NCBI GenBank assembly: GCA_031409655.1
Contig: JANNXQ010000169.1
Coordinates: 1 to 32,770, forward strand
Length of the DNA: 32,770 bases
Source: Chthoniobacteraceae bacterium
GTDB lineage: Bacteria > Verrucomicrobiota > Verrucomicrobiia > Chthoniobacterales > Chthoniobacteraceae
Reading direction: 5' to 3'
Shown in pieces: positions 19,278 through 32,770 of this stretch; positions within the stretch are counted from its first letter, which is position 1; each line of letters starts with the position of its first letter. The notes under the pieces are model-generated. The model was not told the origin of the DNA, did not search any database, and saw only the letters and a program-made list of their open reading frames with translations. Made by a program: the position numbers and the translations under genes.

Positions 19278-22200
19278 CTAGCGCCGGCCGGTTTTCGCGG
19301 CGTCGGCACTGCGGACGACGCGGAAGCCGTAGTTGTCGGTGCTGCTGTCGGGCGCGGCGTGAACGCGGCAGGAGGAGAGCAGGCTCAGCTTGAGCGCGCC
19401 ATTGTACCAGGAGGCTCCACGGAGGACCTTGTGCTTGGACTCCCCGTTCCAAGGATCCATGACCCACTGCCAGACATTGCCGCCCATGTCGTAGATGCCG
19501 TATTTATTGGGCGGAAAACTGCCGACGGGTGAGGTCCAGGCAAAGCCGTCATCGTAGCCTTTGATGGCCACGTCAGAGCCCGTCTCTTCGCCGGTGTAGT
19601 TGCCGGCACCGGCCGGTGGCGGCCACTGATTGCCCCAAGGATAAACATCCGGCACACCCATGTCGCGGGCTTCGGGATTCTTGCCCGATTCCTCGGCTAA
19701 ACCGACGGCGATGCTCCACTCGATGTCGGTCGGGAGACGGTAGATGGTGTTTGCGGGCAGAGCGCCGTCCTTGTGCTCTTTGTCGGAAAGCCATTTGCAG
19801 AATGCGATCGCCTCCTGCCAGGTCACATTGACCACGGGATGATTGGGCACTTGCTTGAAGCCTGGGCTTTTCCAGGCGGTGGAACGGAGATTGACGGCGG
19901 CGGTGAAGGCTTCGAAGTCCGAAACGCGGGTCTGCCAGATCGAAAACTGCACGTCGCCCACGGGCGCGAATTTCATGCCAATGCTGTTTTGGGTGAGGCC
20001 GTCGCCTTGCGCGGGCTTTTCCGGGGCGGGCTTCGTTTCGGGCTTCGTCGGATCGGTCTTCATCGCCAAGGTCGTCTCGGCGACCGGGACGGGCGTCGGC
20101 GCTGTCGCGGGAGTCGGCGGGGCGTCGGCAGGGACGAGTTTCTCGGTGGCCATTGGCTTTTCTGGAGCGGGGGCCTTTTCGGGAGTCGTCGCTTTTCCGC
20201 CAGAAGGAGCGGCAGGCTTGCTGAGGGCCTTGAGTGCGTCTTCCTCAGCCTTCTTTTGAATGGCACTGGTGTCCTTGGTTTTCGCCTCGGCATCGGAGAT
20301 CGCTTTTTGCGCGTCCTCGAGGACCCTCATTTTCTCGTCAAACATCTTCTTCATCGCGGCGATCTCGCTTTCGATCTTCTCGCGCTCTTTCGCCTTCTCG
20401 GCGCGGAGCTTCTCGCCTTCTTCCCGCGCCATCCGTCCAGCCTCGGCGGCGATTGCTTTCGCTGCCGCCAGCTTGGTCTGCTCGGCATCCTGCTCGGCTT
20501 GTTTGAAGGCGGCCTGGCTCTGCTGCCGGGCGGTGTCGCTGGCGGCGATGGCCTTCATCACCGCGGCAGCAGCTTGCTGCTTCTCGGTGAGCGTTTTCTG
20601 CAGGGTGAGAAGCTCGGTGTCGGCTTTTTCCTGAGCGGAAAGCTTCAGGTTTTTCTCGGCATCGAGGTCGGCGAGCGCTTTCCTCGCCTCCTCAGCCAGG
20701 CGGGCCTTTTCCGTGGCGACCTGTCGGGCCTTTTGCGCGTCGAGGTCCGCGCCTTTCTGCGCTTCTTCCTTCGTCTTGCGGGCCTTGGTGAGTTCGTCCG
20801 CGGCCTTGCGCAGCGGGGCTAATTCTTTGGCTTTCTGGTCGAGGGCTTTTTGAATCTCGGCGGTGGCGGCTTCAGCCTGCTGCTGTTGTTTCTGCAAATC
20901 CTGCTGCGCTTGCTCGGCAGCTTGCGCTGCTTGTTTCAGCTTCTCGACGGCAGCGAATTTTTCCGCGACCATTGCTTCGGTGGGGGCCCCGACCGGGGAG
21001 GCCACGCCGGGTGCTGGGGGCGGAGTCGTGGGCTTCTTGGCCGCGAGGAGAATTTCTTCTATCGGAGCGGTCTCGACTTTCGCGGCGGGAGTAATTGCCG
21101 CGACCGGCGGTGCGACGAGCGGAGCGGGTTCCAGTGGCGGAGGGGCAATTTTTGCGACGGGCGCGGGGGCCACGATTGGGGCAGGTTCGGCTTTCGGCGG
21201 CGGCTCTGGCTTTGCGGCAATCGCGGGCGCTGGCTCGACTGCAGGCCCAGCATTTCCTGGCTCAGCTCCGCGGGATGGATCCTCGCCCTTATTATTGACT
21301 GAGCGAATTTCGGAGGCATACGACTCTTGGGTCGTGGCGATTCCTGGACCTTGGTCGCCGGCCTCCGACTCTTCATTCGGCTCGCTCAAAAAGTAACCGG
21401 CGAGTCCCACGGCTGCGAGGGCCACGCCAGCCGCGAGTCCGAGTGCGGGCAAGCGCGAACGCTGCGGCTGCAAATTCGGATAAATCTCGGTGACGTTGCC
21501 GACTTTGGGCTTGGTGAAAGGCGGAGCTGGAGGGGGTGTTGCTTTCGATTCTTTGCGGGCTTGTTCGGCCTCGGCATTGACGGCTCCCGCGGGCAGCGTG
21601 ATGGCGGGACTGACGCTCGCGGCTTGGTTCCGCTTCAACTCGGCGGCCCGCTCGCGGAGGATATCCACGGCCTTTTTCGCCGGTGCTTCACTGCCCTCGG
21701 CAGCGTCCTTCTTGCCAGCCGCGGCGACGTGAGCAGCTTCGCCTTGAAGTTTCGGTGCTCCGACCTTTTGCGCTTCGAGATTCGCTGCTCCCAGTTCCGA
21801 GGCCTTCGCAGGCGCGGCGGCCGCTGTGACTTGGGTCGGAGTCTTGGCCAACTCCGCTCGCTTCGTCGCTTCCGGGGCTTTTTGCGCAGGCCTAGCGGCT
21901 TCGACAGAGGGAAGCGCGGTGACTGGCACTGGTTCGAGGCGCACGAGGATGTCAGAGGCGCTGATGGGGCGCTGGGAGGCATCTTTGCGGAGGGCTGCGG
22001 CGATCGTCTCGTCCCAGGAAGCCGGGATGCTGGAGACACGCCGGTTGGCCGCGAGTCGCGCGGAGACGCGTGGTGCAGCCACGCGGCGAGTTTGCGAGAC
22101 GACATCGCCGCCCGTGAAGGGCAACTCGCCGGTGAGCAATTCAAACAGCAAAATTCCCATGGAATACACGTCATCGGACGGCGCCGCTGGCTGGCCTTCG

Positions 22201-22799
22201 GCAAGTTGCGGGCTCTGGTAAGCCAGACGTGGGTTGGATCCCCGGGCGACGCGACCGAGACCGTCTTGCACGCTGCGGCTCGTGCCAAAGCCGGCGATCA
22301 AGAGCTTGCCGTCCTCCCCGAGGTACAGATTTGCCGGAGCGAGATCCCGGTGGGTCAGGTTCACCTTGTGCGCGTCCTCCAGCGTCTGGCAGAGCTGGCC
22401 GATCCAGGGCTGGATCGCGCCCGGCGCCAGATTTCCCTGCTTCTTCAAACGGATGGCCAGCGATTCGCCGTTGAATGAATCCATGGCCACCGCCGCAAAA
22501 TCAGCCTCTTCGATCAAATCATGCACCCGCAAAATATTCGGGTGAATCAACTGACGGTTCCGTTTCACTTCTTTGCGAATTTCTTCCATCGCCCGTGCAT
22601 CGGAACGAACCGCGCTGGGCAAAAAATGCAGCGAAATGTCTTTCCCCAAAACCTCGTCGTGGGCCAACCAGACGACTGGGCTGCCGATCGTTTCGACTGG
22701 GCGGTGGAGGACGTAGCAGCCGGCAAGTCTCAGGCCTTCAGAGAGAACGGACTCGGTGGTTGCGGAATTGTGGGCTGATTGGTTTTCGTTTGGAGTCAC
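19278..22799 (-). CDS. Membrane protein with degenerate Hanks-type kinase, TM, Pro/Ala-rich linker and coiled coil, and C-terminal FGE-sulfatase-like domain
   Basis: HPNILRVHD, HRDLAPAN, DVYSMG, LTGELPF; TM LGLAAGVALAAVGLAGYFL; HPVVNVTW, YRLPTDIEW, YPWG, DMGGNVWQW, GFRVV. Confidence 0.9.
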   Translation of the reverse strand: MTPNENQSAHNSATTESVLSEGLRLAGCYVLHRPVETIGSPVVWLAHDEVLGKDISLHFLPSAVRSDARAMEEIRKEVKRNRQLIHPNILRVHDLIEEADFAAVAMDSFNGESLAIRLKKQGNLAPGAIQPWIGQLCQTLEDAHKVNLTHRDLAPANLYLGEDGKLLIAGFGTSRSVQDGLGRVARGSNPRLAYQSPQLAEGQPAAPSDDVYSMGILLFELLTGELPFTGGDVVSQTRRVAAPRVSARLAANRRVSSIPASWDETIAAALRKDASQRPISASDILVRLEPVPVTALPSVEAARPAQKAPEATKRAELAKTPTQVTAAAAPAKASELGAANLEAQKVGAPKLQGEAAHVAAAGKKDAAEGSEAPAKKAVDILRERAAELKRNQAASVSPAITLPAGAVNAEAEQARKESKATPPPAPPFTKPKVGNVTEIYPNLQPQRSRLPALGLAAGVALAAVGLAGYFLSEPNEESEAGDQGPGIATTQESYASEIRSVNNKGEDPSRGAEPGNAGPAVEPAPAIAAKPEPPPKAEPAPIVAPAPVAKIAPPPLEPAPLVAPPVAAITPAAKVETAPIEEILLAAKKPTTPPPAPGVASPVGAPTEAMVAEKFAAVEKLKQAAQAAEQAQQDLQKQQQQAEAATAEIQKALDQKAKELAPLRKAADELTKARKTKEEAQKGADLDAQKARQVATEKARLAEEARKALADLDAEKNLKLSAQEKADTELLTLQKTLTEKQQAAAAVMKAIAASDTARQQSQAAFKQAEQDAEQTKLAAAKAIAAEAGRMAREEGEKLRAEKAKEREKIESEIAAMKKMFDEKMRVLEDAQKAISDAEAKTKDTSAIQKKAEEDALKALSKPAAPSGGKATTPEKAPAPEKPMATEKLVPADAPPTPATAPTPVPVAETTLAMKTDPTKPETKPAPEKPAQGDGLTQNSIGMKFAPVGDVQFSIWQTRVSDFEAFTAAVNLRSTAWKSPGFKQVPNHPVVNVTWQEAIAFCKWLSDKEHKDGALPANTIYRLPTDIEWSIAVGLAEESGKNPEARDMGVPDVYPWGNQWPPPAGAGNYTGEETGSDVAIKGYDDGFAWTSPVGSFPPNKYGIYDMGGNVWQWVMDPWNGESKHKVLRGASWYNGALKLSLLSSCRVHAAPDSSTDNYGFRVVRSADAAKTGRR

Positions 22800-23090
22800 A
22801 GCTTTGGAGGATTTTAGGTTGTCGTCAGTCGGACTGGTAGGGCACTAAGCATTGACGCGCGTTCCGTAGCAGTTCACAGACCAATTAGAATTTGGTAGCG
22901 GTTCCATCCTTCGTTGCCAACGCAAAATCGACGAGCGGACCAAAGGCGGACACGATCAGCGGCCGGATTTTTCAAAAATAGGCTTGCGCGAGAAAGAATA
23001 AAATAGATAGTGAATGTAATTTCCATATTTTCATTCCTGTCGTGCGTTCTCCGTAAAAAATTCAATTCACAAGAGCCAAACAATTCCGTA

Positions 23091-24374
23091 ATGAAACAAT
23101 ATATGAAGTCCTCCACGATCGTTTCCCTCGCTTCGATTCTCTGCTCAGGAATGGCATTCGCTGCCGATGCAGGACGCGAATCCAGGCAACTGGAACTCTA
23201 TCCGAAGAATCTGGCGCGGCAGCACGTCGGGGCAAACCTGTTCATCTTCAATTCCGGCAGCGGAACCTTCGTTCCGACCGAAGCGTCTGCGGCCTGGCTT
23301 GACGATGACGTGTCCACAGGGTGGCCGATCATGGCGGGAACTCAGCACTACCTGCTCGCCCTCAGCGAACCCGAGGTCGTGACCAATTTCAGTGTCTCCA
23401 CTCGCCCCACATCAGGGACCGTGACCATCTACGCCGGCGATGAACCCGCTCCGCCGACGGCTAAGTCTTGGACCGTGGTCGCTCGCGACATTCCTCTCGA
23501 GGCCATCAACGACAAGAAAATCGCCCGTCCCTTCAGCAAGCTGGCCAAGTATGTCTTGATCGAGACGAACATCGCGGACCCCGGGCCGATGTTCAGTCTT
23601 TATGTTTACGGTGGAAAACCCGCCGTGAGTTACGACCTGCGCCAGCGGTCACAGTCGATCGACACCCGCGCGATCTTCGGCCAGCACGTCAATAACCAGA
23701 CGATCTTCAATGTGAACGGTCTCTACTCGAAGGGGCGCGTGGAATATGCCAACTCCCCGGATACTTTCATGTCCTGGCAGCGGGCGATCGATGACAACCC
23801 TGAAACTGCTTTGAAGGTGTTGCCTTCGACCACCGAAGCCGGTGCGGTGGTCCGTCTCGATGGTAGCCCGACGCTCTCCCGGGTGGCGCTCCTGACCAAT
23901 CAAAACGCGAAGGGTAAGCTGGATGTTTACGCGCTCCCCGAAAGCGCCGTTGCGGCGACCGGAAAATCCGTCGCGGTGGATAACTTGACGCCCGTCGCCA
24001 GCTTCGTCTTCGACGGCTCCACGTCCCGCTCTAGTATGGATTTTCCGGCCGTGAGCACCGCTGCCTTGGCGGTCCGCTGGACGCCAGTGAGCCCGAGTGA
24101 CTCCGTCTCCCTGCGCGAGATCAATGCCTTTGGTACGATGACGCTCGCCGACAATGAAGTGAGTCTCAACCCTGCCGCCGTCGCTGCTTACTCAACTTCT
24201 GCCGAGCCGGACTCTTACCGGAACGAAGGAACTAACGGCAAAGAAGTGCTCGATCCGAAGGACGCCAAAGACGCTAAGGAAGTCGCCCTCGGCCCACCAT
24301 CCCCATATCTCCCGGGCGCTCTCGGTTTCCCGCCGAATCTTGATCGCCGCCGCATTCCGCCGCTCAGCGAGTAA
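23091..24374 (+). CDS. Secreted protein with two probable discoidin / galactose-binding-like domains
   Basis: Signal peptide (start ATG 23091 or 23103). Repeated motif AWLDDDVSTGW / AIDDNPETA in beta-rich sequence. Confidence 0.75.
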   Translation: MKQYMKSSTIVSLASILCSGMAFAADAGRESRQLELYPKNLARQHVGANLFIFNSGSGTFVPTEASAAWLDDDVSTGWPIMAGTQHYLLALSEPEVVTNFSVSTRPTSGTVTIYAGDEPAPPTAKSWTVVARDIPLEAINDKKIARPFSKLAKYVLIETNIADPGPMFSLYVYGGKPAVSYDLRQRSQSIDTRAIFGQHVNNQTIFNVNGLYSKGRVEYANSPDTFMSWQRAIDDNPETALKVLPSTTEAGAVVRLDGSPTLSRVALLTNQNAKGKLDVYALPESAVAATGKSVAVDNLTPVASFVFDGSTSRSSMDFPAVSTAALAVRWTPVSPSDSVSLREINAFGTMTLADNEVSLNPAAVAAYSTSAEPDSYRNEGTNGKEVLDPKDAKDAKEVALGPPSPYLPGALGFPPNLDRRRIPPLSE

Positions 24375-25402: not shown

Positions 25403-26947
25403 ATGCCCCAGCCATTCCTTATCGCAAAAAACGACACCGAAGTCTTCTTCGAGCCTAAAATGGCCAATCGCCACGGCCTGATTGCAGGGGCCACTGGCAC
25501 CGGCAAGACCATCAGCCTCCAATCCCTCGCCGAGCATTTTTCATCCGCCGGCGTGCCGGTTTTCCTCTCCGACATCAAAGGCGACCTGAGTGGTCTCGCC
25601 GCGGCCGGCAGTGCCACGCCGAAAGTCTCCGAGCGCCTCAATCTGCTCGGTCTTACGGACCACCCCTTCAAAGGGTTCCCGGTGACTTTCTGGGACATCT
25701 TCGGAAAGTCGGGCCATCCCGTGCGCTCGACGATCAGCGAGATGGGCCCTCTGCTCCTTGCCCGCGTGCTCAATCTCAACGACACTCAGGAGGGGGTGTT
25801 GCAAATCCTTTTCAAGGTCGCGGATGAAGGTGGCCTGCTCCTCCTCGACCTCGAAGACTTGCGCGAGATGCTCACCTTCATCGGGCAGAATGCCGCCGAA
25901 CTCACGCTCCGCTATGGCAACGTCAGCGCCGCGAGTGTCGGGACGATCCAGCGCGCGTTGCTCAATCTCGAGCAACAAGGCGGCGACAAATTCTTCGGTG
26001 AACCCGCGCTCAATCTCGACGATTTCATCCAGACCGCGCCCGATGGCCGCGGCGTGATCAATATCCTCGCCGCCGATCAACTCATGGCGAGTCCGCGCAC
26101 CTATGCCACTGCGCTGCTCTGGATGCTCAGCGAGCTCTTCGAGCGTCTCCCGGAAGTGGGCGATCTCGATAAGCCAAAGCTCGTCTTTTTCTTCGATGAA
26201 GCGCACCTGCTCTTCACCGATCTGCCGAAGCAGCTCGAAGACAAAATCGAGCAGGTCGTCCGCCTCATCCGCTCAAAAGGTGTCGGCGTGTATTTCATCA
26301 CGCAGAACCCGCTCGACGTGCCGGAGAAAATCCTCGGCCAACTCGGCAACCGAGTGCAGCACGCCCTCCGCGCCTTTACCCCGCGCGACCAGAAAGCGGT
26401 GCAAAGTGCGGCCGAGACTTTCCGCCAAAATCCGAAGCTCGACGTCGCCTCCGTGATCACCCAACTCGCCGTCGGCGAAGCCCTCGTCTCGCTGCTCGAA
26501 CCCGGTGGCACGCCATCCATCGTGGAGCGCGCGTTCATGCTTCCGCCGCACAGCAAGATCGGGCCGATCAGCGACTCCGAGCGCCAGGCCATCATCCAGC
26601 AGAGCGTCATCTACGGGACGTATGAAAAGGTCGTCGATCGCGAGAGCGCTGCCGAAGTCCTGCAAGCCCGCGCCCAAGGGCGGGCCGCGTCTTCGCCGTC
26701 GGCACCCGCTGCGCCGGCCAGCGGCTCCGCCGCTCCGGCGGCCAGTGCGGGTGGGCCCTCGGTCGTCGGCGCTGCGGGAGGTTTCTTAAAAGATCTCATC
26801 ATGGGCAGCACCGGACCACGCGGGGGCAAGAATCAGGGCCTTGCCGATAAGATGATCTCCAGCACCGTCCGCACGATGGGCTCCACCGTCGGTCGCGAAA
26901 TCATCCGCGGCGTCCTCGGCTCCCTCTTCGGCGCGAAGCGCCGGTAG
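25403..26947 (+). CDS. DUF853/YjgR-family HerA-like P-loop ATPase
   Basis: ANRHGLIAGATGTGKT, DIKGDLSG, FFDEAHLLF, LIRSKGVGVYF, QLGNRVQHALRAFTP. Confidence 0.93.
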   Translation: MPQPFLIAKNDTEVFFEPKMANRHGLIAGATGTGKTISLQSLAEHFSSAGVPVFLSDIKGDLSGLAAAGSATPKVSERLNLLGLTDHPFKGFPVTFWDIFGKSGHPVRSTISEMGPLLLARVLNLNDTQEGVLQILFKVADEGGLLLLDLEDLREMLTFIGQNAAELTLRYGNVSAASVGTIQRALLNLEQQGGDKFFGEPALNLDDFIQTAPDGRGVINILAADQLMASPRTYATALLWMLSELFERLPEVGDLDKPKLVFFFDEAHLLFTDLPKQLEDKIEQVVRLIRSKGVGVYFITQNPLDVPEKILGQLGNRVQHALRAFTPRDQKAVQSAAETFRQNPKLDVASVITQLAVGEALVSLLEPGGTPSIVERAFMLPPHSKIGPISDSERQAIIQQSVIYGTYEKVVDRESAAEVLQARAQGRAASSPSAPAAPASGSAAPAASAGGPSVVGAAGGFLKDLIMGSTGPRGGKNQGLADKMISSTVRTMGSTVGREIIRGVLGSLFGAKRR

Positions 26948-26949
26948 CC

Positions 26950-27070
26950 TGGGAGCGCCGCCGTTTCGTGCAGCACCCGCCATCGCGCGGCGCGCCATTC
27001 TAAAACGAGCGGCAGTCGAAAGGGCGCTCGCGCACCGGAGACGTTGCCGCAGGAGACGGCGGCGCTCCCA
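26950..27070. repeat. REPIN-like inverted repeat (GGGAGCGCC type) between convergent genes
   Basis: TGGGAGCGCCGCCGTTTCGTGCAGCA (26950-26975) against 27045-27070, 23/26 complementary. Confidence 0.8.
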
Positions 27071-27079
27071 CGGGCGCAC

Positions 27080-28276
27080 TCAGAAGCGCACGCCGAAGCC
27101 AAGGCCGACCGCGTTCTCGCCTTGCACGCTGCTCCCGGCTTCGTGCGTGTGGCTGTATTGCGCTTTGAGCAAAATGTCCCGCGTGACCTTCACTCCGAGT
27201 GCCAACTCCGCGCGCCAGGTATCGCGATCCCACCCGACATTGCCGCCCGGTGCTTCGAGGTCGCTGAAAAATTGCTGCCCCCAACGCGCTCCGAGCCAGA
27301 GCAGGGGGTTCACTTTCCAGCGGCCCTCGACGTAATACGACAGCACGTCGAGATCGCCGGTCTGGGGCGTTGCAAAACGCGCGCCGATGACTTCTCCCCA
27401 CACTTGGAACTGCCGCCACGCCCAGCGCGCATCGACGCCGATCAAGGTCTCCGGGTAGTCGTCGCGCCCCGAGCCGAATGGCAATCCGGGCGCTGCTTCA
27501 TCCAGCAGATAGGAGCCGCGGCTCGCGGAAAGTCCCAGTGCCCACATCGCATTCGGGCGCCAGCCGAGGCGGCCCGTCACCGTCGGATGATCGAGGTACT
27601 CCTGCCACGGATTCCACGCGTCCGGACGCGCGGCGAGCGCCGCATTCTTGACCTCCAGCGCGTAGTCGAATTTTCCCAACGCCCCGAAGATCGCCGCACC
27701 CGTAGCGTAACTCGGTCCCCAGATCACCGGCAGCCATCCTGCCTTGTTGTCCGCCTGGTTGCGACGAGCCGCGACATTTGCGCGGCGCGCGTCCGTCCTT
27801 CGATCGTTGATCCCGAGCATCCGGTTGTAGGGCAGGGGGGCATCGAGAAAGGGATTGTCGAAAAACTCGTGACGCTCGACCCAATTGCCAAAGACCGTCG
27901 CAAACTTTCCTACCTGAATCTGCAGCCGCGGATCGCCGAGCGGGCGCCACCGGAGAAAAGCTTCATCCACCCGAAAGTCGCCGTCGTCGCGCGCCCCCGC
28001 ATCGAAGCCGCGATCCCAACGCGTCTCGACATGCGCAAACCATTGCTCGCCCGCCATGAGATCGAGCGAGAGCACGAGCCGCGGTTGGAAGTAGGTGGCT
28101 TCGTCAAAGATCACGAGACCCGGTGGCGGCGTCTCCATGTGCCAGACCTCGGCCTCGATCTGCGGCGCAAAGCTCGCTCGCCAGAAGCCATCGGCCGACG
28201 AAATTTCCCGGCCGCCAAACGCGGTCCCGCTGATTGCCGTGCAGACGGTGGCAGCGATGCGGAGAAGAGAGCGCAT
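27080..28276 (-). CDS. Putative outer-membrane beta-barrel (porin-like) protein
   Basis: Signal peptide, Trp/aromatic-rich amphipathic strands, C-terminal GLGFGVRF. Confidence 0.8.
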   Translation of the reverse strand: MRSLLRIAATVCTAISGTAFGGREISSADGFWRASFAPQIEAEVWHMETPPPGLVIFDEATYFQPRLVLSLDLMAGEQWFAHVETRWDRGFDAGARDDGDFRVDEAFLRWRPLGDPRLQIQVGKFATVFGNWVERHEFFDNPFLDAPLPYNRMLGINDRRTDARRANVAARRNQADNKAGWLPVIWGPSYATGAAIFGALGKFDYALEVKNAALAARPDAWNPWQEYLDHPTVTGRLGWRPNAMWALGLSASRGSYLLDEAAPGLPFGSGRDDYPETLIGVDARWAWRQFQVWGEVIGARFATPQTGDLDVLSYYVEGRWKVNPLLWLGARWGQQFFSDLEAPGGNVGWDRDTWRAELALGVKVTRDILLKAQYSHTHEAGSSVQGENAVGLGFGVRF

Positions 28277-28286
28277 GACGGCGTCT

Positions 28287-29999
28287 TTAATCAGCCGTCT
28301 CCGGGGAGTCGAGCGCGAGCAGTTGGAAGGCTTCGATTCCTTCGGAGAATCCTTTGAGTTTCAGCGCGCCGAGCGCCCGTGACTGCGCCGCTTTTCCGCA
28401 GCCCGCCAGCGTTGGCGCGTCGATCACGATCTCCATCGGCCCTGCCTGACTGCAGAGCCGCGCGGCGAGATTCATGCGTGCGCCGAAGACGGAGTAGTTC
28501 AGCCGATCTTTGCTCCCCATGCGCCCGGCGACCATGCGGCCCGTGGCGACGCCCACCCCCACTTCGATCTGCCGCCCGCCGCTCGCATTGAGCCGCGCCC
28601 GCTCCGCGATGAGCCCGAGCGCACAGGCCGCCGCGTGGCGTTCATTTTCCTCACTCCGCCGCGGGGCCCCGAAAAGCGCAATGATCAGATCGCCCACGAA
28701 GTGCAGCACCACGCCGTCCTGCTCATAGACCACGCGCGTGAGTGGCGTGAAATGCTCGTTCAGCATCTCGATCACTTCCTTCGGCGCCATGCCCTCGCTC
28801 AGCGTGGTGAAGCCGCGGATGTCGCAGAAGACCACGCTCACCTCGCGCTCTTCGCCGCCGAGTTCGAGCCCGCCTGCGATCAAATCTTCGGCGACGTGCG
28901 GGTCGGAAACGAGGTCGAGCATTGAGCGATACTTGTCCTTCAGCGCGAGGTCGCCGCTCATCGCGTTGAAGGCCGTCGCCAGGGTGCCGAGTTCGCCGCC
29001 GCGGGGTGTTGCGCGTGCGGAGTAGTCGCCGCGCCGGATGGACTCGGTCAGCGTCACCAGTTCGCGCACTGGCTTGGCGAGTCCATTGGCCAGCGCGAGC
29101 GCCACGAGCGCCGCCGCGGTCAAGGCCGCGCCGCCCGTGCCGAGCATGTTCTTGCGGAGTTCGCGTTGCTGGCGTTCGCGCTCCGCGAGGGAAAAGGCGC
29201 ACATCTCCACGGCAGCCGGGAAAATCCCGCTCCCGCCTGCTCCCACCTGCTGCCAGAAGACGACGAAGCGTCCGCCACCAAGCGTCACTTCTGCACGCCC
29301 GCGATCGTCCTTGGCCAGCGTTGCCAGGATTTGCTCGTCTTCCGCAGCCCACCCTCCCGTCACGAGTCGGCCTCCGAGCAGCAGGCCCGCGCGCAGGTCT
29401 CCGGTGATCTCGTCGGTCTCAGGCTTCGCAAATCGCGCGAGTAGCAACCCGCCGTGCAATGAGTCGTTTTCCACGTCCACGATGGGCGAAAAATGCGCCT
29501 CCCACCAGCCGGGCGTTTGCGTCGTCGTCAGCAGTCCGTGGAATTCGCGCCCCCCCGCAAGCGCGCTCGCGACGCTCTCCTCGGTGGGCCGCCAATCCAG
29601 CGACGGCCCACCATGATCGAGCTTCGCCGCGCCGGGGATTGGCCGCCCTTTTGGATCCACGAGGCGCAGTGCCCAGCCGACACCCGGCTTGCGTTCGTCG
29701 AGCGCGATTCCGGCGGCTTCGTACACGACTTCTCCGGGCATCGCCGTCGTATCCTCCGCGTGCGCCATGAACGTCGCCTGCAGCCGCACCGAACGCGCGA
29801 TGGCGCCCGCCAGCCCGCGTGCTTCTTCCGCTCGCAACTCCCGCTCGCGCGCGACTCGAGCGACGCGCTCCTCGAAGCGCGCGTCCAACGCCCGCGTAAA
29901 CGCCTCGCGCATGCTCCGCTCCGCGCTCCACAGCGCCGCCCAAGTCACCGCTGCGACGAGCAGCAGCATCGCGCCGAAGAGCCGGAGCCGGAAGCTCAC
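28287..29999 (-). CDS. Membrane class III nucleotide cyclase (TM, periplasmic sensor, TM, HAMP, cyclase)
   Basis: VFCDIRGFT, FVGD, GVGVATG, NLAARL; HAMP LAKPVREL...ELGTLATAFNAM. GTG 29999 overlaps the upstream stop. Confidence 0.9.
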   Translation of the reverse strand: MSFRLRLFGAMLLLVAAVTWAALWSAERSMREAFTRALDARFEERVARVARERELRAEEARGLAGAIARSVRLQATFMAHAEDTTAMPGEVVYEAAGIALDERKPGVGWALRLVDPKGRPIPGAAKLDHGGPSLDWRPTEESVASALAGGREFHGLLTTTQTPGWWEAHFSPIVDVENDSLHGGLLLARFAKPETDEITGDLRAGLLLGGRLVTGGWAAEDEQILATLAKDDRGRAEVTLGGGRFVVFWQQVGAGGSGIFPAAVEMCAFSLAERERQQRELRKNMLGTGGAALTAAALVALALANGLAKPVRELVTLTESIRRGDYSARATPRGGELGTLATAFNAMSGDLALKDKYRSMLDLVSDPHVAEDLIAGGLELGGEEREVSVVFCDIRGFTTLSEGMAPKEVIEMLNEHFTPLTRVVYEQDGVVLHFVGDLIIALFGAPRRSEENERHAAACALGLIAERARLNASGGRQIEVGVGVATGRMVAGRMGSKDRLNYSVFGARMNLAARLCSQAGPMEIVIDAPTLAGCGKAAQSRALGALKLKGFSEGIEAFQLLALDSPETAD

Positions 30000-30637
30000 T
30001 TGTCCGCGAGCGCCACCTCGACGCCGCGTCCGCCGGCCACCGTCACGGGCTGTTCCCACGAATGCTTTTCGTCGAGCCAAGCCTTCAGCGTGTAACTGCC
30101 GGGCGGTACGCCGCGCAGTTGGAAGCGGCCTTTTTCATCCGTCGTGGTGAAATACGGACTGTCCACCACGAGCACGACGCTGCGCATGTGCTGATGGATC
30201 TCGCAGAAGAGCCGCACGACGCCTGCTTTGTCGAAGACGACCGCCGCCGGCGCTTCATCTTTGCGATAGCGCCCGAGATCGAACCGCTTCGTCTTCGAGA
30301 GGGAGAAGACGTTGTGATAGTCCTCGTCGCGGTTCGGAAATTCCACCCGCGTGCCGGTCTGCACGACGAGCAGCCCGGTGCGAAATTGATAACCCTCCTG
30401 CTCCATCCGCGCGCTCCCCGCCGCCATCCCACGGATCGCTGGACTCTCGAGCCACACCCCAGCGATGCGCGATGGCGCAGGATTCACCCGGCCCGAAATG
30501 CTGCCGGAATATTTCTCCACGGCGATCGGTGCCGCCGCGACCCGTGTGATTGGCACCGAACCCAATACGCCTGCCGAATCACCGCGGGCGAAGCTCACAG
30601 CGAGGAGGAAAAGCGCGGTGGCGGTGCGCAGGTGCAT
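29996..30637 (-). CDS. Periplasmic cupredoxin-like protein with C-terminal carboxypeptidase-regulatory-like domain
   Basis: Signal peptide; FPNRDEDYHNVFS...FCEIHQHM gives the His/Cys/His/Met ligand set; TDEKGRFQLRGVPPGSYTLKAW. Confidence 0.87.
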   Translation of the reverse strand: MHLRTATALFLLAVSFARGDSAGVLGSVPITRVAAAPIAVEKYSGSISGRVNPAPSRIAGVWLESPAIRGMAAGSARMEQEGYQFRTGLLVVQTGTRVEFPNRDEDYHNVFSLSKTKRFDLGRYRKDEAPAAVVFDKAGVVRLFCEIHQHMRSVVLVVDSPYFTTTDEKGRFQLRGVPPGSYTLKAWLDEKHSWEQPVTVAGGRGVEVALADK

Positions 30638-30751
30638 GCTGAGAGCTAAGCGTCAGTGAACCGAAATGGGAACCAGGAATCCGAGGAAAACTCGAAAGGT
30701 CGGAATCTGGAAAAGGGTCGCCGACGCTGCTGCCATCGGTTTTCCCTGGCT

Positions 30752-32065
30752 TCACTCGGTTAAAACTTGTTTCGGATTTCGGATTTCGGATTTCGAGTTT
30801 TCCCCAAAGTGCCGTCCCGTGATCAGCCGCGCGCCGCGCCCGAAGGTCACGAACTGCCAGGCCCAGTTCAGCAGCACCAGCAGCTTGTCCCGGAAGCTGA
30901 CGAGGAAGAGCAGATGCACGAAAAGCCACGCCAGCCAGGCGATGAAGCCGCTGAAACGCAGAAAGCCCATATCGGCCACCGCGCGGTTGCGGCCGATCGT
31001 GGCCATCGAGCCTTTGTCCCAATACTCGAAGCGCTCGGTCCATCCGCCCGCGATGAGCTTGCGGATATTGTGCGCGGCGTGGCGGCCCTGCTGCATGGCC
31101 ACCGGAGACAGGCCCGGGAGCGGGGTGCCTCCGCCCGGGGCGAAGTGCGCCATGTCGCCGATCACAAAAACTTCCTGATGCCCCGGGATGCTCAAGTCTT
31201 CGCGGATGATCACCCGGCCTTGCGAATCGTAAGGCACGCCGAGACTCAGCCCGAGCGGCGATGCCGCATTGCCCGCTGCCCAGACCATCGTGTGCGTCGC
31301 GATCTCCTCGCCGCCTTTCAAAGTCACCACCGTTTCCGTGAGCTTCTCGACTCGGGCGAGCACTCTTACCTGCACTCCGATGTCGCCGAGCTGGCGCCTG
31401 GCTGCCTCCGAAAGATCAGGTGTGAAATTCGAAAGCACGCGATCACCCGCGTCGAGCAGGATCACGTGCGCCTGGCTCGGATCGATGTGCCGAAAATCTT
31501 TCACCAGAGTGAAACGCGCGATCTCCGCGATCGCTCCCGCCATCTCCACGCCCGTCGGTCCGCCGCCCACCACCACGAAAGTCAGCGCCGCTTTGCGCTC
31601 CGCGTCGTCCTGCGTTTTTTCCGCGACTTCAAAGGCGAGCAGCATGCGCCGCCGGATCTCCAGCGCATCGTCCAGCGACTTTAGCCCCGGCGCGAAATGC
31701 TCCCACTCCGCGCGCCCAAAGTAGCTGTGCCGCGCCCCCGCCGCGACGATCAGGTAATCGTAGCCCACCTCGCCATCGCTCGTGAGCACAGTCTGCCGCC
31801 ACGGGTCGATGCTTCGCACATCCGTCAGGATCACCTCCGCATTGGCCTGCCGCTTCAGGATCGCGCGTAGCGGCTCCGCGATGTCCGCCGGCGAAAGCGC
31901 TGCCGTGGCCACTTGATAGAGCAGCGGCTGGAAAAGGTGATGATTCTGCCGGTCGAGGAGCGTGACGCGCACCGGTACTTTGCGCAGCGCCTTGGCCGCT
32001 TCGATACCGCCGAAGCCGCCCCCAATGATGACGACGCGCGGGAGATTTTTGAGATGAACATTCAT
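30752..32065 (-). CDS. ndh: Type II NADH dehydrogenase family flavoprotein
   Basis: IIGGGFGG, HLFQPLLYQVATA, GGGPTGVEMAG, WAAG, AMQQG, DKGSMATIGR. Confidence 0.9.
   Translation of the reverse strand: MNVHLKNLPRVVIIGGGFGGIEAAKALRKVPVRVTLLDRQNHHLFQPLLYQVATAALSPADIAEPLRAILKRQANAEVILTDVRSIDPWRQTVLTSDGEVGYDYLIVAAGARHSYFGRAEWEHFAPGLKSLDDALEIRRRMLLAFEVAEKTQDDAERKAALTFVVVGGGPTGVEMAGAIAEIARFTLVKDFRHIDPSQAHVILLDAGDRVLSNFTPDLSEAARRQLGDIGVQVRVLARVEKLTETVVTLKGGEEIATHTMVWAAGNAASPLGLSLGVPYDSQGRVIIREDLSIPGHQEVFVIGDMAHFAPGGGTPLPGLSPVAMQQGRHAAHNIRKLIAGGWTERFEYWDKGSMATIGRNRAVADMGFLRFSGFIAWLAWLFVHLLFLVSFRDKLLVLLNWAWQFVTFGRGARLITGRHFGENSKSEIRNPKQVLTE
30770..30797. repeat. Heptamer tandem repeat (TTTCGGA)x3 plus TTTCGAG
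   Basis: Read directly; lies inside the 3' end of ndh and encodes SKSEIRNPK. Confidence 0.85.
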
Positions 32066-32186
32066 GAATCGTGAGAACAACGCCGATGATAGCACACCGC
32101 CCAAGCCGCCCAGCGAAGCGAAGGTCGCCCGCGGCAGAGACTATGAGATGTCTCTGCGAAACGCCATCGGGCACCCGCGCCGCGCA

Positions 32187-32355
32187 GGTGGCTGCCGCGC
32201 TCCGAACGCCATGAACCTCCCATGCGCGCCGCAGTATTTCCCACGTTCTCCGCACCCAAAAGCCTATAAACGACAAGGCGGAAATCTTGTGTGGTGAAAT
32301 CAGCGCCGCTCGCGCAGCAAATGCCGACCCCGGGAGCGCCGCCGTCCCGTGCGGC
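32187..32355. repeat. Solo REP-like copies upstream of the Y1 transposase
   Basis: 32187-32213 resembles the 5023/5117 arm (about 23/28). 32332-32355 GGGAGCGCCGCCGTCCCGTGCGGC resembles the 26950/27045 arm. Confidence 0.55.
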
Positions 32356-32413
32356 TTCCGCCCCACCCGCGCGCCGCGCCCATCTCCCACCGCCAGCAGC
32401 GGAGACGTTAGTC

Positions 32414-32439
32414 GCGTTCGGGATAGGCGTTCGGGATAG
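32414..32439. repeat. 13-bp tandem duplication GCGTTCGGGATAG x2
   Basis: Perfect direct repeat 52 nt upstream of the transposase ATG. Confidence 0.85.
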
Positions 32440-32491
32440 GGGTCAGGCGACATTTCTTGACAGCAAAGCATCAAGAGATGTGAAGCGGGGC

Positions 32492-32770
32492 ATGCCGCGC
32501 AGTATCCGCCATAAATATCCCGGTGCGTATTACCACGTGATGGCGCGGGGTAACCGGCGGGAGAACATCTATGGCGACGACGAGGACCGCCGCGCTTTCC
32601 TGAAAACCCTGGATAAGCCTGCGCAATGACGGGCTGGCAGGTCCATGCCTGGGTGCTGATGAGCAATCACTACCACCTTCAGATCGAGACCCCGGAAGCG
32701 AACCTGGTGGCCGGGATGCAGTGGCTGCAAAACACCCACACGCGGCGCTTCAATCTGCGGAACCGGCTCT
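32492..32770 (+). pseudogene. Y1 (HUH) transposase, RAYT-like; frameshifted and cut by the window edge
   Basis: MPRSIRHKYPGAYYHVMARGNRRENIYGDDEDR stops at TGA 32627-32629. The -1 frame from 32617 continues ACAMTGWQVHAWVLMSNHYHLQIETPEANL with the HUH motif. Confidence 0.85.

Follow-up and report, generated by a model that had tools for sequence, protein, structure and literature searches.

The described systems closest to the locus reported here are YfiBNR of Pseudomonas aeruginosa and NsrA-CyaK of Sinorhizobium meliloti. YfiBNR comprises an outer-membrane protein, a periplasmic protein and an inner-membrane HAMP receptor encoded in one operon; its outputs are exchanged between genomes and partial operons occur (PMC3375315, available text). 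NsrA is an outer-membrane beta-barrel needed for signaling to the receptor adenylate cyclases CyaK, CyaD1 and CyaD2 (PMC7529298, available sections). Here, three adjacent genes predicted to encode a periplasmic blue-copper protein (cupredoxin), a receptor cyclase and an outer-membrane porin were analyzed in a 32,770-nucleotide (nt) stretch of Chthoniobacteraceae DNA (GCA_031409655.1, contig JANNXQ010000169.1; the whole stretch is called the window). This trio is kept together across genomes while the output of its receptor is exchanged, and it is therefore likely an unstudied cell-envelope sensing system, probably one for copper or redox state. An initial annotation of the window had stated that no characterized system with this layout was known to it. 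The statement did not hold for the three-compartment layout itself, which YfiBNR and NsrA-CyaK share, but it held for the proteins, which differ.

The module resembles YfiBNR in its three compartments, its exchange of outputs and its partial sets, as far as the available text on Yfi goes. However, YfiB is a PAL-domain lipoprotein, whereas the outer-membrane part of the module is a porin. Neither the cupredoxin nor the barrel had a YfiR or PAL-domain match in Pfam or NCBIfam, and the module differs further in its dCache_3-like sensor and its cyclase or kinase outputs. Partner switching has been demonstrated for Yfi, according to the same partial source, and is extended to the module by analogy. 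NsrA is about 1200 amino acids (aa) long and perceives proteins, and the available sections of PMC7529298 mention no copper protein. The CyaK, CyaD1 and CyaD2 cyclases are CHASE2-type, unlike the module's receptor with its dCache_3-like sensor (PMC13001267, in part). CyaC of S. meliloti, a membrane adenylate cyclase, is redox-responsive, but its input comes from the respiratory chain and quinones, and neither a periplasmic copper protein nor a porin is mentioned in the portion available (PMC10463352). The module would be a variant of three-compartment envelope signaling, in which the kind of layout is already known and a copper input would be new.

All three genes lie on the minus strand: the cupredoxin gene (213 aa; positions 30637-29996), the receptor cyclase gene (570 aa, GTG start; 29999-28287) and the porin gene (398 aa, C-terminal Phe; 28276-27080). 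The first two share a 4-nt GTGA overlap and the last two are separated by a 10-nt gap (28277-28286), in agreement with the initial description of three co-oriented, packed genes. Each member of the trio is single-copy in the host assembly, other cyclase domains aside. The nearest named relative was a Chthoniobacteraceae genome, with 77% (cupredoxin), 69% (receptor) and 74% (porin) identity.

For linkage, every profile was run against one set of 301 genomes from the host's class. The cupredoxin subfamily, delimited at an E-value of 1e-60 placed at a visible score gap, was found in 30 genomes. The sensor was encoded directly downstream in all 30, adjacency being taken from coordinates. A full porin was present in 29 of the 30, on the same contig in 27 and across contig ends in two; the remaining genome (G333) had only a porin fragment, elsewhere in the genome. 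Among the other 271 genomes, the sensor was found in three and the porin in one; related genomes are not independent in any of these counts. Altogether, the loci fetched included 45 distinct loci with the full trio and 22 with the cupredoxin followed by the porin only (short loci excluded). The trio also occurred at two loci in the phylum of a Planctomycetota genome (L185 and L187). No transporter or enzyme family was a recurrent neighbor of the module across 71 loci, a response regulator and lineage-specific neighbors aside. Two damaged copies were seen: an apparently split porin gene without partners in G048 (L024:5327-6644) and a frameshifted receptor cyclase in G386 (L163:2470-4089).

The output of the receptor varied among the 30 genomes: cyclase in 12 (one in frameshifted pieces and one split over contigs), histidine kinase in 13, and hybrid kinase in five. 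A response regulator was present in 12 of the 13 kinase loci. The profile built from cyclase-linked sensors found 13 of 13 kinase sensors and five of five hybrid-kinase sensors at 101-219 bits, and these cross-profile matches show that the three outputs share one sensor family. In the host, no other open reading frame (ORF) matched this profile with an E-value below 0.04. The initial annotation had raised the question of whether the genes co-occur and whether the middle gene is conserved or swapped; the trio does co-occur, as a conserved unit with one predicted product per envelope compartment as proposed, and it is the output of the middle gene that is swapped.

The cupredoxin has a signal-peptide-like N-terminus without a lipobox, as judged by eye from the sequence, an amicyanin-like domain and an immunoglobulin (Ig)-like second domain (CarboxypepD_reg, Pfam E 1e-9) that the initial annotation had overlooked. 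Its AlphaFold2 model had a mean predicted local distance difference test (pLDDT) score of 92, and the best Foldseek matches were amicyanin, pseudoazurin and plastocyanin, as expected of a cupredoxin fold. The claimed type-1 copper ligand set was complete: His108, Cys145, His148 and Met151 (codons within 30185..30316, minus strand) align with the ligands of amicyanin and were invariant in 90 of 90 aligned cupredoxins drawn from the best 120 of 817 matches, a comparison of sequence alone and not of site geometry. Of the 137 distinct cupredoxins in the collected loci, 130 kept the ligand pattern, and at least one of the seven misses was cut by a contig end. The protein is thus likely a blue-copper protein, with a predicted fold and location, that would be loaded in the periplasm. 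It shares the fold (Foldseek E 2e-6) and the C-x2-H-x2-M ligand loop of amicyanin and other small blue-copper proteins but adds the Ig-like domain, and it scored only 15 bits against the amicyanin family TIGR02657 (cut-off 110.2). Proteobacterial homologs are annotated as ‘methylamine utilization protein’, a label presumably tied to MauL; the window cupredoxin has no adjacent mau or methylamine dehydrogenase genes, its neighbors being ndh and a herA-like gene. A Tyr-bearing N-terminal loop was present only in the two cupredoxin subfamilies that have this porin family.

The receptor has hydrophobic helices at residues 5-23 and 285-303, which flank a 261-aa periplasmic domain and are followed by a HAMP domain and a class III cyclase domain. 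Domain scans and helices agree with the original identification of an inner-membrane HAMP class III cyclase with a periplasmic sensor, a location that is predicted. The sensor (residues 24-284; 29148..29930, minus strand) belongs to the family common to the cyclase, kinase and hybrid-kinase receptors. Direct matches to dCache_3 (PF14827) were absent for the window sensor and weak for two of 49 family members. The family profile nonetheless matched dCache_3-positive relatives in a profile-profile comparison (97.9%, E 4e-13), and no solved structure matched it.

The cyclase domain (28320..28847, minus strand) carries the canonical metal-binding aspartates D393 and D437 and the transition-state residues N510 and R514. 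At the adenine-specifying positions it has His433 (28701-28703) in place of Lys and Ser503 in place of Thr, rather than the Lys and Asp (or Thr) expected; these residue assignments follow PMC4886424, in its available part. The CyaB sequence in our comparison carries Thr at that adenine-site position. Thr is an accepted variant of the adenine-specifying Asp in class III adenylate cyclases. Among 87 sensor-bearing cyclases, the adenine-site residue was Lys in 59, His in 13 and Gln in two, with 13 unparsed. The 13 His proteins spanned 44-100% identity, and within this clade the cyclase domain (60-97%) was more conserved than the sensor (33-84%) in six of six comparisons, which argues against decay and for altered specificity or rate. 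Gln or Asn was seen at this site on other branches (L165, L166, L056, P0252 and P0254), so substitutions arose there repeatedly. Cyclic AMP (cAMP) is most likely the product in the receptor-cyclase family at large; because His occupies the adenine-specifying Lys position, the product of the window cyclase and its clade is uncertain. The host genome had 13 matches to cyclic-nucleotide-binding domains.

The barrel ending in Phe was recovered as a porin. The protein has a signal peptide, and its AlphaFold2 model (pLDDT 93) contained 16 strands, counted from the DSSP list, in keeping with a 16-stranded porin. The best fold matches were OprP (top), OprO and general porins at ~10-13% identity. With these it shares the predicted 16 strands, a long loop after strand 5, Arg-richness and the terminal Phe, but sequence identity is ~12%, and the score against the OprP/OprO family (Porin_O_P, PF07396) was 13.5 bits, below the cut-off of 20.9. 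No solved structure was matched by sequence. In the porin alignment 71 columns were at least 90% conserved, 18 of them in the long loop after strand 5. Arg or Lys occupied 15 of the 71 conserved columns versus 8 for Asp or Glu. The Arg/Lys-rich columns and the conserved loop therefore suggest a selective pore, perhaps for anions.

In a second verrucomicrobial subfamily the order was a distant porin, cupredoxin and dCache_3 hybrid kinase (10 receptors scanned; porin homology 99.5%). In a third, an unrelated barrel-like gene preceded the cupredoxin in four of six loci and a cyclase followed it. On proteobacterial plasmids, a cupredoxin was followed by a dCache_3-type GGDEF-EAL receptor in three of five loci viewed, two of which add DUF3034 and a truncated hemoglobin, one hemoglobin having a clear signal peptide. 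In RefSeq annotation this cluster reads ‘methylamine utilization protein’, dCache_3-HAMP-GGDEF-EAL, DUF3034 and group 1 truncated hemoglobin. Its cupredoxin is ~40% identical and lies directly before the homologous sensor type, but the cluster differs in its cyclic di-GMP (c-di-GMP) output, its added globin and a cupredoxin without the Tyr loop. DUF3034 and the barrel of the third subfamily were rejected as porin homologs, since profile comparison detected no relation of either to the window porin; a DUF3034 search of the host genome ran without a positive control. Thus the barrel family and its position change between subfamilies, while the order of cupredoxin before dCache_3 receptor persists, including at loci with another barrel or none (L039, L141 and L164).

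Receptor-porin fusions were also found. With one long protein as query, 150 representatives were retrieved, and 34 of these had the cyclase and the porin within a single frame; 25 of the 34 exceeded 900 aa. Fusion ORFs of ~960-1030 aa included L187:6276-9308, P0269, P0333, P0354 and P0367-P0394, and the one in L187 is immediately preceded by a cupredoxin gene. Between the two parts, nearly all fusions had a signal-peptidase-like site as well as a hydrophobic stretch, and Met was present in six of 38 junctions examined. Such a fusion is probably a processed polyprotein whose parts would be cleaved and sent to different membranes. In the class of G466 no fusions were found beyond that genome, and a 932-aa barrel fusion in L088 was an artifact of overlapping frames. 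Linkage, output swap and receptor-porin fusions together mark the module as both conserved and modular.

Four kinase loci (L025:57-2645, L026, L027 and L161) had DUF3570, ApbE and thioredoxin-like genes upstream of the regulator; a DUF3570/ApbE cluster has been placed in a redox context (PMC8238504, available text). These loci, the exported-type globin of the proteobacterial cousins and the respiratory-gene neighbors of distant cupredoxins would fit a redox setting for the module. Several kinase loci of the L025 type also had Ig-domain secreted proteins and type II secretion-like genes downstream. A multiheme cytochrome and a 680-aa barrel-like gene followed the porin in L028 (7616-10446), and in L199 (4717-9500) a similar pair came before the genes for a distant cupredoxin and a multicopper oxidase. 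Other distant two-domain cupredoxins followed a 1149-aa molybdopterin oxidoreductase or lay beside COX1-like genes, often behind a large multiheme cytochrome (L191, L192, L197, L198, L200, L201 and L204).

We are highly confident that the three genes form a real functional unit. Since the cupredoxin gene before the dCache receptor gene is the most constant feature, the cupredoxin is favored as the regulator that binds the receptor. In this model the predicted porin and the periplasmic blue-copper protein would form the input. The porin would admit or dock the stimulus, and the cupredoxin, having gained copper in the periplasm, would bind the sensor domain as a removable regulator, as YfiR does on YfiN. 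Its own copper or redox state would then switch the cytoplasmic cyclase of the receptor, with the HAMP domain relaying the change to the cyclase dimer. Direct control of the receptor by the cupredoxin is somewhat favored, the case for redox or copper as the stimulus is evenly balanced, and the full picture, in which the cupredoxin binds the receptor, the porin serves for entry or docking and the signal is copper or redox state, falls just short of even. A complex prediction for the porin and sensor with the cupredoxin as partner scored 0.61 against 0.48 for a control, and it counts as evidence neither way. A wider version is offered tentatively: the cupredoxin would be the dCache ligand, its Cu(I)/Cu(II) state set via a dedicated porin, and one sensor family would feed cAMP, phosphorelay and c-di-GMP outputs across phyla, with a product other than cAMP from the His cyclases and with a polyprotein as the source of receptor and porin in a sister family.

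Several observations weigh against the cupredoxin as copper- or redox-reading regulator. There were the 22 distinct loci with cupredoxin and porin and no receptor between, and the sensor was not found in any of five such genomes searched (completeness not given). In a quick tree of 83 rows (duplicate L148 left out; L140-L142 and L181-L183 not among the rows), the receptor-less pairs fell in two parts, and the window cupredoxin sat among them, inside a 97%-supported group with 11 receptor-less loci. Seven sensor copies had no nearby cupredoxin or porin, three of them in genomes without the cupredoxin subfamily. The sensor profile was built from the surveyed loci, so that its matches there are not independent. 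No His, Cys or Met is invariant in the sensor family; the most frequent Cys, present in 38 of 49 members, is replaced by Ala in the window sensor. As a rule, dCache domains are themselves the binding site for small molecules. Redox-type neighbors sit at the loci of relatives and not at that of the window, the four ApbE loci being kin, and ndh was seen at the window locus only.

The main rival holds that porin and cupredoxin are an independent pair, for uptake of small anions or metal complexes, copper buffering or periplasmic electron transfer, and that the co-transcribed receptor senses a small ligand by its own dCache pocket and leaves the cupredoxin untouched. We consider this possible but doubtful. 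The receptor-less pairs in two separate parts of the tree and the orphan receptors speak for it, as do the excess of conserved Arg/Lys in a porin whose top fold match is OprP, the restriction of the Tyr loop to subfamilies with this porin, and the distant cupredoxin homologs in respiratory clusters. The persistence of the cupredoxin-receptor order after barrel replacement or loss (L039, L141 and L164) counts against such a pair, as does the lack, across the 71 loci, of any inner-membrane transporter or oxidoreductase as a recurrent neighbor of the module.

The barrel might instead sense an external organic ligand or a surface cue, like NsrA for CyaK, with the cupredoxin as a structural relay and its copper structural or incidental. 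The fusions, which link receptor and porin directly, the switching of barrel family between subfamilies as expected of a specificity part, the Ig-like second domain of the cupredoxin and the NsrA-CyaK precedent (PMC7529298, available sections) are consistent with this. It is nevertheless unlikely: four type-1 ligands invariant across the aligned family fit a redox-active site better than a scaffold, and the barrel is porin-sized, without the large periplasmic part implied for NsrA (barrel residues 600-1200) in the same sections. Less probable still is that the cyclase is weak or dead in the window lineage and the module is heading to a receptor-less state. Lys is kept in 59 of the 87 sensor-bearing cyclases where the window has His433, the window sensor shares just 17-28% identity with most members of its family, and the closest cupredoxin relatives lack a receptor. 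On the other hand, the same His recurs in 13 of 87 proteins as distant as 44% identity, the cyclase outconserves the sensor in every comparison, and the metal aspartates and the Asn/Arg pair are intact.

In the literature searched, no description was found of the module or its parts, although the cluster could still appear in supplementary tables or in subscription papers, nor of a blue-copper protein that provides a membrane receptor with its input in the periplasm; the available text of PMC11904497 does not mention the operon. Small blue-copper proteins are known for shuttling electrons. To our knowledge, little signaling has been characterized in the host's class, where the unit occurs in about a tenth of sampled genomes. 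If the cupredoxin regulates the receptor as proposed, bacteria would have a direct readout of periplasmic or external redox or copper state. This would also explain a large family labeled ‘methylamine utilization protein’ or ‘carboxypeptidase regulatory-like’. The module would then form one testable superfamily with the cyclase-porin fusions and the globin-EAL cluster of proteobacteria.

Upstream of the trio lies ndh, encoding a type II NADH dehydrogenase (30752..32065, minus strand). The initial annotation had suggested a redox link for this gene. No ndh match was found at any cupredoxin locus but the window's own (59 of 119 loci, duplicates included, had at least 2 kb upstream). The link therefore lacks synteny, and ndh was rejected as a module member and placed outside the conserved unit. 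The module had also been described as bounded by repeats. Repeats are present on both sides, but they are dispersed through the genome and not specific to the module, and they were rejected as its boundaries. Between the converging herA-like and porin genes lies a palindromic dispersed repeat (26950..27070, no strand assigned; arms 26950-26975 and 27045-27070; fold z -4.4). Its 15-mer core had 173 genome matches at one mismatch or fewer, for which reason it looks like a repetitive extragenic palindromic (REP)-type or small mobile element. The other is a heptamer tandem repeat in the 3' end of ndh (30768-30800) with copies on several further contigs. A scan of 26800-32770 gave no sigma-70-like promoter, and the terminator-like matches in it were at chance level. 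The HerA_C helicase-like gene (25403-26947) runs toward the porin gene and recurs as a neighbor in L001 only. Elsewhere in the window were a 454-aa ORF without a convincing Pfam or NCBIfam match (23010-24374) and a gene for a 1173-aa protein with a Ser/Thr kinase-like domain, a long low-complexity coiled region and a C-terminal FGE-sulfatase domain (19278-22799).

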